Below are positions 11,709-14,663 of a stretch of DNA of 64,000 nt, one piece after another (the stretch's first letter is position 1; each line of letters begins with the position of its first letter). The stretch covers positions 32,001-96,000 of the forward strand of contig OY782041.1 in NCBI GenBank assembly GCA_963677595.1. Reading direction: 5' to 3'. The notes under the pieces are model-generated. The model made no database searches, was not told the origin of the DNA, and was given only the letters and a program-made list of their open reading frames with translations. Source of the DNA: Spirochaetia bacterium (GTDB lineage: Bacteria > Spirochaetota > Spirochaetia > CAKZLE01). Both the position numbers and the translations under genes were made by a program.

Positions 11709-11725
11709 AGCAATCACCGTGCCAA
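11709..11725 (-). promoter_or_regulatory. sigma54 -24/-12 promoter of nifH
   Basis: Minus strand reads TTGGCACGGTGATTGCT = TGGCAC-N5-TTGC, about 37 nt upstream of the nifH ATG. Confidence 0.92.
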
Positions 11726-11772
11726 GTGCGAATCAGGGCCTGGGGAGCTGTTTACAGGGGTGCGGGGGGCGA

Positions 11773-11826
11773 CGTTTTACCAAAAGGTAACAGGATCTAG
11801 GCCCGTTTTACATTTGTGTAACAGGA
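11773..11826. promoter_or_regulatory. Tandem enhancer sites CGTTTTAC-N6-GTAACAGGA (TAC-N6-GTA core), 31 bp apart
   Basis: cgttttac-caaaag-gtaacagga (11773-11795) and cgttttac-atttgt-gtaacagga (11804-11826), upstream of the sigma54 promoter. Confidence 0.8.
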
Positions 11827-11965
11827 CAGCATACCGTCAAAGGCGTGGTTTGGGATGCCGGGTCAGGAGGAGGAAGGAAGGTCGTGCCGGTGCACACGAA
11901 GGCAGTCGGACCTACGTTCCCTTAGGTCCGACTGATTGCTGCAGAAAAGAGGCAATATCCTGTGA

Positions 11966-13525
11966 TCAGTGGCTGTAGCGTGCTACCTGGATCTGGTACT
12001 TCTGGATGCGCAGCCCGAGCTGCCGGTTAGTGATCCCGAGGTTCCTGGCGGCTTTCGAGATGTTCCCGTTCGTCCGCTTCAGCTCCTCGACGATCATCTC
12101 GTACTCGATGGAGTCGAGACGGAAGGTGAGCGTCCCCTTCTCCCCGGTCTCAGGCCGGTGGGAGGATTTCTGCAGGGAAGGCGGCATATGGAAGCCGTGG
12201 ATGGTATCATCATCGGAGAGGATCACTCCCCGCTCGATGCAGTTCTCCAGCTCCCGTACGTTCCCGGGCCAGTGGTAGGACATGAGCATATCGATGGCCG
12301 GGGTCGAGATCCTGGAGATCTGCTTCCCGGCGAACTTACTGTGCTTCTCGATGAAGAAATCGGACAGCGGGATGATATCGGTCTTCCGTTCGCGGAGGGG
12401 CGGCACATAGATGGGGAAGACGTTCAGCCGGTAGAAGAGGTCCTCCCGGAAGGTCCCCTCGGCGGCGAGCGCCTCGAGGTCACGGTTCGTCGCCGCGATC
12501 ACCCGTACATCCGCCTTGCGGACCTCGGTATCACCGATGCGCTGGTACTCTTTCTCCTGGAGGACCCGTAGCAGCTTCACCTGGGCGTTGAGGGTCATCT
12601 CACCGATCTCGTCAAGGAAGATCGTCCCACCGTTCGCCTGCTCGAACTTCCCGATGTGGGTCTGGAGCGCCCCGGTGAAGGAGCCCCGGTTATGCCCGAA
12701 GAGCTCGGACTCGATCAGGTGCTCGGGCAGGACGGCGCAGTTGAACTTGATGAAGGGCTTGTCTGCCCTCCTGCTGTGGTAATGGATCGCCTCGGCGACG
12801 AGCTCCTTCCCGGTCCCGCTCTCTCCCTGGATGAGCACGGTGGTATTGTTCGGCCCTATCCGGTTGATCTGCCTGAAGAGGTTCTGCATGACGCTCGAGG
12901 TCCCGATCATGTTCACCTGCCGGATGGAACCTTTCAGTTCCTGCTGCAGCCGTTCATTCTCCTTGTAGAGCGACAGGTTCTCCTCATGGATCGCCTGGTG
13001 GAGCCTGACGCTCCGTGAGACCATGGCGGCGATGATGGTGAGCAGCTTCTGGTCATCCTCGAGCTGGACATCATCCTCGAAGAGCCGGTCGGCACTCAGC
13101 GTCCCTATCGCCTGCCCGCCCATGGCGCCCATGATCGGTACGCAGATGAACGATATCTGGGTATCGGCCAGTCCAGCCCGGGAACCGGTCTTGTCGAGAA
13201 AATCGGGTTCACTGGTGGTCATCGGGATGATCATCGGCTGTGCAGTCTCCGCTACCTTGCCGATGATGCCCTCCCCGAGACTGTATATACCGCGTGAAGC
13301 CTCCTCCTCGGTCAGGCCGATCGAGGCCTCGAGGGAGATCGCACCGGTCTTCCGGTTGAGGATCGTGATCATGCCCCGATGGATCCCCAGGTACTTCGCC
13401 ATGATCTCGAGGATCGGCCTGAAGACGTTCTGGACATCATGTTCATACCGGAGAATCACGCTGATATCATTGAGAAGCGAGATCACCCGCTTCAGGTACT
13501 TCGGTTCCTGCAGGTTCGGGTTCAT
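11966..13525 (-). CDS. GAF-AAA-HTH sigma54 activator of nif genes (NifA family, AnfA-like)
   Basis: GAF (RGIYSLGEGIIGKV), GESGTGKE, GSFTGA loop, FLDEIGE, WPGNVRELEN, C-terminal HTH. Confidence 0.9.
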   Translation of the reverse strand: MNPNLQEPKYLKRVISLLNDISVILRYEHDVQNVFRPILEIMAKYLGIHRGMITILNRKTGAISLEASIGLTEEEASRGIYSLGEGIIGKVAETAQPMIIPMTTSEPDFLDKTGSRAGLADTQISFICVPIMGAMGGQAIGTLSADRLFEDDVQLEDDQKLLTIIAAMVSRSVRLHQAIHEENLSLYKENERLQQELKGSIRQVNMIGTSSVMQNLFRQINRIGPNNTTVLIQGESGTGKELVAEAIHYHSRRADKPFIKFNCAVLPEHLIESELFGHNRGSFTGALQTHIGKFEQANGGTIFLDEIGEMTLNAQVKLLRVLQEKEYQRIGDTEVRKADVRVIAATNRDLEALAAEGTFREDLFYRLNVFPIYVPPLRERKTDIIPLSDFFIEKHSKFAGKQISRISTPAIDMLMSYHWPGNVRELENCIERGVILSDDDTIHGFHMPPSLQKSSHRPETGEKGTLTFRLDSIEYEMIVEELKRTNGNISKAARNLGITNRQLGLRIQKYQIQVARYSH

Positions 13526-13527
13526 CT

Positions 13528-14478
13528 TTAGGAGCTCCTCCCCACCTGGTACGGCAGCAGCGGCTGGTAGGCCAACGGGTCGGAGCGGAGCCCGTGCAGG
13601 TGTATACCCGAGGTATGGGTGAAGACTGCTCCCCCGACGAACGGCTTGTCCTCGGGTGTCACCCTACCCGAGACCTGTTCTGCGAAGGTGCTCAACGCAT
13701 ACAGCATCGAGGGGTCCACGTGGGTGTGGTACCCGGCTTTCCGGTCTATGTTCATGACGACCTCGGCCAGGGGGGCATTCCCTGCCCGCTCCCCGATCCC
13801 GTTCACCGTCACATCGATGGTATCGGCGCCGGCATCGATTGCGGCGAGACAGTTCGCCGTCACCAGCCCGTAGTCATTATGGCCGTGGAACTCCACCGGC
13901 ACCCCAGACCTTCCGGTGAAGAGCCTCACGGTCCTCGACACCTCCTCAGGCATGGCTGTTCCCACGGTATCTGAGATCCGGATCCGGTCGATCGGCAGCT
14001 CATCGAGCAGCCGGTTGACCTCCCCTATATGGCGTTCATCTGCCCGGAAGGCATCCTGCAGCCCCAGGCTCATGAAACTGAACCGGGACCGGTAGCGGCC
14101 TACTAAGTCCATCGTCTTCTCCAGCACATCCTCCCAGGTATGGGAGGTTGCCTTGAGGTGGTAGCCTGAGAACGGCAGGCAGATATGGACGCTCCTCGCC
14201 CCGCAGCCGTAAGCTGCCTCGATATCGAAACTCTTGAGCCGGCACCAGGCGATCACCCGTTTCTGGGGGAACGATTCGGTAAGGAGCCGTATGATGTTCT
14301 GGTCCAGGAGTCCTGAAGCCGGGATGCCGGCTTCGATCTCATCGATCCCGGCGGCGAAGAGCCTGCCGGCCAGGACGAGCCGGTTCTTCATCCCCATCGA
14401 TACTCCCGGGGCCTGGTTCCCGTCACGCAGTGTGGTGTCTAACAGCCTGATGGTGCGGCTTTCACGATATTCCATCAC
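13528..14478 (-). CDS. nifV: Homocitrate synthase (short form)
   Basis: LDTTLRDGNQ, HGHNDYG, GIGERAGNA, HTSGIH DRE-TIM motifs inside the nif cluster. Confidence 0.85.
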   Translation of the reverse strand: MMEYRESRTIRLLDTTLRDGNQAPGVSMGMKNRLVLAGRLFAAGIDEIEAGIPASGLLDQNIIRLLTESFPQKRVIAWCRLKSFDIEAAYGCGARSVHICLPFSGYHLKATSHTWEDVLEKTMDLVGRYRSRFSFMSLGLQDAFRADERHIGEVNRLLDELPIDRIRISDTVGTAMPEEVSRTVRLFTGRSGVPVEFHGHNDYGLVTANCLAAIDAGADTIDVTVNGIGERAGNAPLAEVVMNIDRKAGYHTHVDPSMLYALSTFAEQVSGRVTPEDKPFVGGAVFTHTSGIHLHGLRSDPLAYQPLLPYQVGRSS

Positions 14479-14513
14479 CTCTCCTTACTCTATCGTGGTA
14501 TTATTCTATCTAT

Positions 14514-14529
14514 AGCAAGAATTGTGCCA
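14514..14529 (-). promoter_or_regulatory. sigma54 -24/-12 promoter of the nifV-activator operon
   Basis: Minus strand reads TGGCACAATTCTTGCT = TGGCAC-N5-TTGC. Confidence 0.9.
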
Positions 14530-14610
14530 TACTGTCCGTCTCCAGGTAACCGCTTATACACAGTAGGGTTACGTGACCGTTACGTAATTTTGAATCTTAC
14601 ATCTTGCAAT

Positions 14611-14663
14611 TATCCTACGAATATGTAGGATATATACTATCAAAACTGCTACATACAGGTAAC
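14611..14663. promoter_or_regulatory. TAC-N6-GTA enhancer sites upstream of nifV
   Basis: Perfect-arm palindrome tatcctac-gaatat-gtaggata (14611-14632) and ctac-atacag-gtaac (14649-14663). Confidence 0.72.

Follow-up and report, generated by a model that had tools for sequence, protein, structure and literature searches.

What kind of activator controls the molybdenum (Mo) nitrogenase genes of a spirochaete when the DNA sites expected of NifA are absent from their promoters? The question is raised by a 64,000-nucleotide stretch from a Spirochaetia bacterium (assembly GCA_963677595.1, contig OY782041.1, positions 32,001 to 96,000; hereafter the window), in which a minus-strand nif cluster includes the gene of a σ54-dependent activator, P0001, and in which two σ54 promoters, one for nifH and one for nifV, are each preceded by TAC-N6-GTA palindromes. 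From the sequence comparisons presented here, P0001 appears to be a Mo-nif activator of a Chlorobia and spirochaete group, neither a NifA nor a member of the AnfA clade, and it is predicted to work at the DNA as AnfA and VnfA do, by an arrangement that is conserved.

The features on which the argument rests are listed below. Site scores refer to a family matrix derived from 92 paired sites in other genomes.

14650–14661, no strand: nifV-activator promoter, far TAC-N6-GTA site; one half C-flanked, the other T-flanked; score 13.4
14616–14627, no strand: nifV-activator promoter, near TAC-N6-GTA site; matches the family consensus CCTAC-N6-GTAGG in full; score 20.3
14515–14529, minus: σ54 −24/−12 consensus of the nifV-activator operon, perfect match
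13528–14478, minus: nifV-like homocitrate synthase gene (316 amino acids); best match TIGR02660, under its cut-off; ends 2 bp upstream of the P0001 gene
11966–13525, minus: P0001, GAF-AAA+-HTH σ54 activator (519 amino acids); GSFTGA; recognition helix T-N-R; no N-terminal Cys motif
11809–11820, no strand: nifH promoter, far TAC-N6-GTA site; both halves T-flanked; score 7.9
11778–11789, no strand: nifH promoter, near TAC-N6-GTA site, 31 bp from its far counterpart; both halves T-flanked; score 9.9
11710–11724, minus: σ54 −24/−12 consensus of nifH, perfect match
10854–11672, minus: nifH; TIGR01287 above cut-off; the sole nifH of the genome

Paired palindromes at σ54 promoters

The initial annotation had placed TAC-N6-GTA palindromes upstream of both σ54 promoters, and all four are present. 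In the window as a whole the motif occurs 11 times against 4.3 expected, and the only two perfect TGGCAC-N5-TTGC sequences, both on the minus strand, are those preceding nifH and nifV. The distances of 86 and 88 bp, from which a common position relative to the promoter had been read, are correct on the sequence, but they set the far site of nifH against the near site of nifV. The offsets between sites and promoters are 65–68, 90, 96–98, 121 and 132 bp, and fit site pairs three helical turns apart. A consensus pattern for IHF gave no match between sites and promoter at the six promoters examined. Additional GTTAC/GTAAC half-sites lie between the nifV site pair and the nifV promoter (14560–14590).

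With its six fixed bases the motif is found 600 times in the genome, and a count of bare pairs no more than 60 bp apart shows no genome-wide excess (N6 15, other spacers 5–14). The palindromes could then be products of chance in AT-rich intergenic DNA and P0001 an ordinary NifA, as its best NCBIfam match is nifA (TIGR01817, 494 bits, below the cut-off of 529). This explanation is refuted, and next to no weight is left for it. Composition-keeping shuffles and other spacers do not give such pairs: two TAC-N6-GTA sites lie within 250 bp of 6 of the 28 strict σ54 consensus sites of the genome, where 300 shuffles gave a mean of 0.007 and a maximum of 1, spacers of 4, 5 and 7–10 gave 0/28 and a spacer of 3 gave 1/28. 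The TGT-N10-ACA sequence has six matches in the window, none near the nifH or nifV promoter, as the initial annotation had reported. Finally, the phylogeny that had been proposed as a check does not place P0001 with canonical NifA; the approximately unbiased (AU) test rejects that grouping (p = 0.0004).

By family scans, four of the six paired-site promoters lead to nitrogen genes, namely nifH, nifV, amtB-glnK and glnA (type III glutamine synthetase, GSIII), and a fifth has an NMT1-type ABC transporter on one side and a pyrimidine-catabolism-like operon on the other. The family matrix finds eight pairs in the genome. The nifH pair is under its threshold; new are one pair at a further amtB-glnK operon and two near genes of xanthine-dehydrogenase-like and amidohydrolase type. 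Beyond the window, the genome has a second member of the activator family, and these sites recur at amtB, glnA and operons of nucleobase catabolism. From the sequence, the four palindromes of the window are very probably enhancers for GAF-type σ54 activators of a family that reads TAC-N6-GTA.

The sixth paired-site promoter (C1:3310044–3310142; L400:5900–6145, minus strand) has a perfect σ54 site, a strong site pair (20.1 and 19.5) and no known gene. Downstream of it, a 6-codon Gln-rich or a 25-codon frame follows a strong ribosome site and is succeeded by a G+C-rich stretch. Neither Rfam nor five relatives gave a match for the target, which is possibly a nitrogen-regulated small protein or RNA. 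More strong intergenic sites or pairs, with no σ54 match in range, occur at C1:584186–584229, 4122295–4122336, 2526075, 4150920 and 4160368, some of them adjoining xanthine-dehydrogenase-like and amidohydrolase genes.

The motif is also kept at orthologous nifH promoters, which had been suggested as a second check. It occurs within 400 bp upstream of nifH in 16 of 24 spirochaete loci, this one included (shuffle level 1.2, maximum 7), with at least two copies in 11, and within 450 bp in 25 of the 30 Chlorobia loci that were fetched from 47 matches. The corresponding counts for TGT-N10-ACA are 2/24 and 5/30. Among the best 29 spirochaete homologue loci of the activator, 19 are by amtB, glnK or glnA, seven by nif and three by neither, and the Desulfobacterota loci include 16/30 by amtB and 1/30 by nifH. 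As in this window, nifV adjoins the activator gene in all 19 Chlorobia loci fetched. On this comparison, the nifV-activator arrangement appears common among anaerobes and not an oddity. A metagenome search for close relatives of P0001 returned mostly distant activators (2/80 loci examined).

The place of P0001 among nitrogenase activators

The comparison set consisted of activators from 80 named anfD-type loci, of others from named genomes in which anf, vnf and nif genes occur, and of NifA sequences from annotated plasmids. Searches of plasmids and the PDB found NifA and DVUA0143 and no named AnfA. Ten rows that were near-duplicate, truncated or frameshifted were dropped before the first tree, and two duplicates were merged in the identity comparison. 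The 64-row tree is a hand-chosen subset; Rhodobacter capsulatus AnfA was missing from the first tree and was then added.

P0001 contains the Pfam domains GAF, Sigma54_activat and HTH_8. It is 52–59% identical to spirochaete homologues, 44–52% to full-length anf- or vnf-linked activators, 33–41% to NifA and 40% to DVUA0143, and spirochaete and Chlorobia activators (52–59%) are closer to it than those linked to anf or vnf. In the 64-protein tree, AnfA and VnfA form a clade without P0001 (100/100), and this clade is nested in a 28-row clade with P0001, Chlorobia proteins and other spirochaete proteins (100/99). A 52-row family (100/100) encloses the 28-row clade in turn; its deeper branch consists mostly of amtB-linked proteins, and NifA and DVUA0143 fall outside the family. 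A mixture-model tree of 47 rows gave the same nesting with a support of 99, and P0001 was outside the AnfA/VnfA clade in all trees made. P0001 also belongs to a 41-row clade (99) with DVU1949-like and amtB-linked activators. The AU test rejects a grouping of P0001 with DVUA0143 (p = 0.002, with L031 taken as DVUA0143 by its plasmid position) and a single clade of the non-Anf/Vnf members (p = 0.021).

The initial annotation had described P0001 as a regulator of AnfA lineage. This is borne out insofar as P0001 is, by sequence, closer to AnfA/VnfA than to NifA; it fails insofar as P0001 stands outside their clade. The further suggestion, that the locus reflects the pool from which AnfA derives, fits the nesting of AnfA and VnfA inside the kin of P0001. 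The features first read as signs of AnfA did not survive. The supposedly AnfA-like segments are family-wide and occur in amtB-linked and Chlorobia members as well. GSFTGA, which P0001 does have, was rejected as an AnfA marker, as it occurs in 13 of 28 anf-locus activators and in one of the four closest matches of P0001. The TAC-N6-GTA site is not specific to AnfA, since it is also the core of the VnfA site and of the predicted DVU1949 and DVUA0143 sites.

The N-terminal Cys pattern is present in 18 of the 20 AnfA/VnfA-clade rows and in 2 of the 44 others. P0001 is without it, as had been reported, and has no Cys in its first 70 residues. It might be supposed that P0001 is a true AnfA that lost this motif and was recaptured by a Mo-nitrogenase cluster, and its 44–52% identity to anf/vnf-linked activators, its GSFTGA and the T-flanked sites, like those of R. 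capsulatus anfH, would agree with such a history. Its position outside the clade, its nearer spirochaete and Chlorobia relatives, an Asn in place of the helix Arg of AnfA-clade proteins and the absence of any AnfD above cut-off among 301 genomes of the phylum largely refute the idea, which is now very improbable. The tree suggests that AnfA and VnfA are likely a derived branch of Mo-nif activators, distinguished by the helix Arg and by the gain of the Cys motif at the N-terminus. Two Desulfovibrionales anf loci (L088 and L102) contain two AnfA-clade activators each; the second of L088 has an ambiguous base in its AAA motif.

AnfA of R. capsulatus and VnfA1 of Azotobacter vinelandii are the nearest tested relatives of P0001 in the tree. 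In published work, TAC-N6-GTA is the AnfA site, with two such sites bound and both needed for full expression (PMC7294313), and VnfA1 has GT(T/A)C-N6-GTAC, with TAC-N6-GTA as its core (PMC9542535). The P0001 locus shares with both the GAF-AAA+-HTH architecture, two dyad sites per promoter with this core, and the lid, linker and HTH segments. It differs in the missing Cys motif, the helix Asn, its place in the tree and its setting, a Mo-nitrogenase cluster with modABC in a genome without anf or vnf. Canonical NifA has the same domain order and a comparable two-tier logic, a general regulator followed by a nif-specific activator, but a different site (TGT-N10-ACA), helix and clade.

Two predicted regulons of Desulfovibrionales are also pertinent. 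Kazakov et al. (2015) predict a DVUA0143 regulon in which a σ54 activator with an AnfA/VnfA-like N-terminus would control Mo-type nifHDK and nifV through sites such as CTAC-N6-GTAG (PMC4641369). Unlike P0001, DVUA0143 is on a separate branch, with a NifA-like helix and 40% identity, and its regulon is a prediction. The same source predicts a general nitrogen regulon for DVU1949, covering the operons of amt, glutamine synthetase and further nitrogen genes; its sites, of the TTTACA-W4-TGTAAA type, also precede genes of DVUA0143 orthologues in two genomes. The likely DVU1949 orthologue, identified by its iorAB context, is a deep member of the P0001 family; it differs in its long, distant branch and T-flanked sites, it too rests on prediction, and the available part of PMC4641369 does not link it to the origin of AnfA and VnfA. 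Supplementary file 2 of that paper gives the helix of the plasmid-borne activator under DVU1949, and its first labels look shifted relative to the genes (L409), so gene context was used.

Neither the motif nor the two-regulator layout is of a new kind (PMC7294313, PMC4641369); the greatest value lies in the nested origin of AnfA and VnfA and in the rule linking a helix residue to a flanking base that is described below. In the literature searched, with subscription journals and RegPrecise pages outside its coverage, no paper was found that places AnfA/VnfA in the P0001 family or describes the Chlorobia and spirochaete sites. A 2026 survey still treats nifA as chiefly a trait of aerobes and remarks that nifA, vnfA and anfA are not told apart by database labels (PMC12903952). 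If the present reading is true, the label of Nif-specific regulatory protein would misdescribe many proteins of anaerobes, which would be no NifA and not confined to nif; in spirochaetes and green sulfur bacteria, a scan for TGT-N10-ACA would overlook the control of nif. The tree would also offer an origin for the activators of alternative nitrogenases.

The paralogue, the helix residue and a proposed cascade

The second family member of the genome (G000:C1:4294919–4296454) is directly upstream of amtB-glnK-glnA and is 49.5% identical to P0001; the whole paralogue-amtB-glnK-glnA(GSIII) locus spans C1:4294897–4300669 (L397). A strong site 22 bp ahead of the paralogue's own start suggests that it may repress itself. 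The grouping of P0001 with the paralogue is rejected (AU p = 0.0005), and therefore the two are not products of a recent duplication. In five genomes from the same family nifD gave no match and the activator family has a single member each; in two of the three tested among them, the strict pairs are confined to the activator-amtB-glnK-glnA locus. The motif can thus be present where nitrogenase is absent, and either this genome gained the nif cluster together with its dedicated activator or the relatives lost them. A second type III glutamine synthetase gene (C1:353821–355983) shares 66–78% identity with the first and is broken into two reading frames.

In the recognition helix region the paralogue reads GITERIMGLR and P0001 GITNRQLGLR, so that Glu in the former stands where the latter has Asn and where aligned AnfA-clade proteins have Arg. 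In the chemistry of DNA recognition, acidic residues can read C and Arg can read G. Flanks were compared in 27 genomes, that is 29 less two without a parsed helix, and two more were dropped for the kinship contrasts. C flanks occur at 56 of 72 nifH half-sites where the nif-linked activator has Glu or Asp, and at 1 of 18 where that residue is Asn, Tyr or Val. The 35 anfH promoters that have a σ54 site yielded 32 half-sites, with flanks of G (19), T (11) and C (2), and paired sites at amtB or glnA have a C flank in 87 of 122 cases. These counts are the basis of the hypothesis that one helix residue tracks the base flanking the site, which would amount to a one-residue test in cultured Chlorobia or Rhodobacter.

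The best explanation, and one that is somewhat favored as a whole, including the family reading of P0001, is a two-step cascade in which a general regulator would activate nifV-P0001 and P0001 would then activate the nifH operon. The general regulator would be the paralogue-type activator. On nitrogen shortage it would probably be released through GlnK acting on its GAF domain, would bind C-flanked CTAC-N6-GTAG sites about three helical turns apart, and would activate σ54 polymerase at amtB-glnK, glnA and nifV-P0001. P0001, with Asn instead of Glu, would prefer the T-flanked nifH pair and drive nifH-I1-I2-D-K-E-N-B-fdx-modABC, after which NifI1/I2 would switch nitrogenase off post-translation. 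NifI1 and NifI2 are known for such post-translational shut-off, and the proteobacterial cascade from NtrC to NifA follows a similar order. Action of P0001 at nifH is the firmer part of the proposal and is quite likely. That the paralogue drives the nifV promoter may be suggested by the matrix scores (20.3 and 13.4 at nifV versus 9.9 and 7.9 at nifH). Control of the GAF domain by PII proteins has about an even chance of being right; it is drawn from R. palustris AnfA, which is controlled by PII proteins (PMC12093980), and from the glnK genes in the regulon.

A simpler arrangement would have P0001 alone running both promoters, including its own, with the paralogue restricted to amtB and glnA. 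The P0001 gene does lie between the two promoters, one nifV half-site has the nifH-type GTAAC flank, and the 86/88 bp register is common to both. Against this, the near nifV site is the full general-regulator consensus (20.3), unlike the nifH sites; the register is family-wide, since an offset of 96–98 is found again at C1:3310044 and in front of amtB; and the contrast between nifV and nifH flanks is also found in G562 and G556. Control of both promoters by P0001 alone is therefore unlikely. Some readthrough from nifV may occur, since the search for a terminator between P0001 and nifH found only a hairpin overlapping the TAC-N6-GTA sites, hairpins there being fewer than in shuffles.

Alternatively, the paralogues could be interchangeable, or the general regulator could drive nifH directly, with flanks that only tune affinity so that nif comes on last. 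The two helices are close, C is missing at 16 of 72 half-sites in acidic-helix genomes, and G030 has nif with a single family member, beside amtB. But the nif-linked copy, which comes from a different branch, is kept beside nif here and in G556, G562, G575, G584 and G143, and in none of five such genomes are the nifH sites mostly C-flanked. Interchangeable regulators are accordingly judged quite improbable.

Several observations weigh against the cascade and the phylogenetic reading it includes. One of the six paired-site promoters (C1:3310044) has no recognizable target, and the strict motif is absent at 8 of the 24 spirochaete nifH loci, two of which have short upstream DNA. In G030 the one family member is amtB-linked and nifH nevertheless carries the sites, which shows that a copy dedicated to nif need not always be present. 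Glu occurs together with T-flanked nifH sites in G044 and G051, G143 lacks a C flank at nifV, and G575 lacks a strict site there. The non-Anf/Vnf group of the AU test (p = 0.021) was defined once an initial tree was in view; the nesting of AnfA/VnfA is weak when the AAA domain is used alone (82), and the GAF domain alone does not resolve it. Because kinship reduces the residue-flank link to one independent contrast on starred branches and two on all branches, that link is held as a hypothesis. A broader proposal is put forward tentatively, at a little under even likelihood: AnfA and VnfA would trace back not to NifA but to a general regulator of ammonium assimilation in anaerobes, with Mo-nif activators such as P0001 and those beside nifV in green sulfur bacteria as intermediates, and one helix residue (Glu/Asp, Asn or Arg) would set the flank of TAC-N6-GTA (C, T or G/T), so that paralogues share the core without cross-talk.

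The nif cluster and its surroundings

The order on the minus strand is nifV, P0001, nifH, two P-II genes, nifD, nifK, nifE, nifN, nifB, ferredoxin and modABC. Downstream of nifH the features are:

10101–10813, minus: two P-II family genes between nifH and nifD, by P-II matches; presumably nifI1 and nifI2, from their position
7038–10093, minus: nifD and nifK, Mo-Fe protein; TIGR01282 and TIGR01286 above cut-off, AnfD/VnfD models far under cut-off
2591–7078, minus: nifE, nifN, nifB and a 2Fe-2S ferredoxin gene; nifN by position and similarity, below cut-off
323–2588, minus: modA, modB and modC, molybdate ABC transporter, by family scan; last genes of the run

NCBIfam cut-offs are passed by NifH, NifD, NifK, NifE, NifB, ModA and ModB, with NifD and NifK above the Mo-type cut-offs; NifN, NifV and ModC are under theirs. 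The genome, which is 95% complete, gave no AnfG or VnfG match, no AnfD above cut-off and one nifH, in agreement with the earlier assignment of the targets as Mo-type without anfG or vnfG. No NtrC above cut-off and no GlnD were found in the genome. The search for Mo control returned just a ModE-like HTH below cut-off, and a TATA-dyad box pattern is at neither the nifH nor the nifV promoter.

Genes for the spirochaete sheath protein FlaA were not found in this genome nor in one congener, and are present in all four tested class members from other families and in a named Spirochaetales genome. By inference from this distribution, the organism may be a non-flagellated spirochaete. Elsewhere in the window are two AAA_14/DUF4143 ATPases, a NYN-LOTUS protein and a Fic protein (21638–22777, 42425–43816 and 40503–42331), and a uronate and sugar use cluster (43951–55478) with uxaC, uxuA, a glucuronyl esterase-like gene, GH31, an ABC transporter and a LacI regulator.

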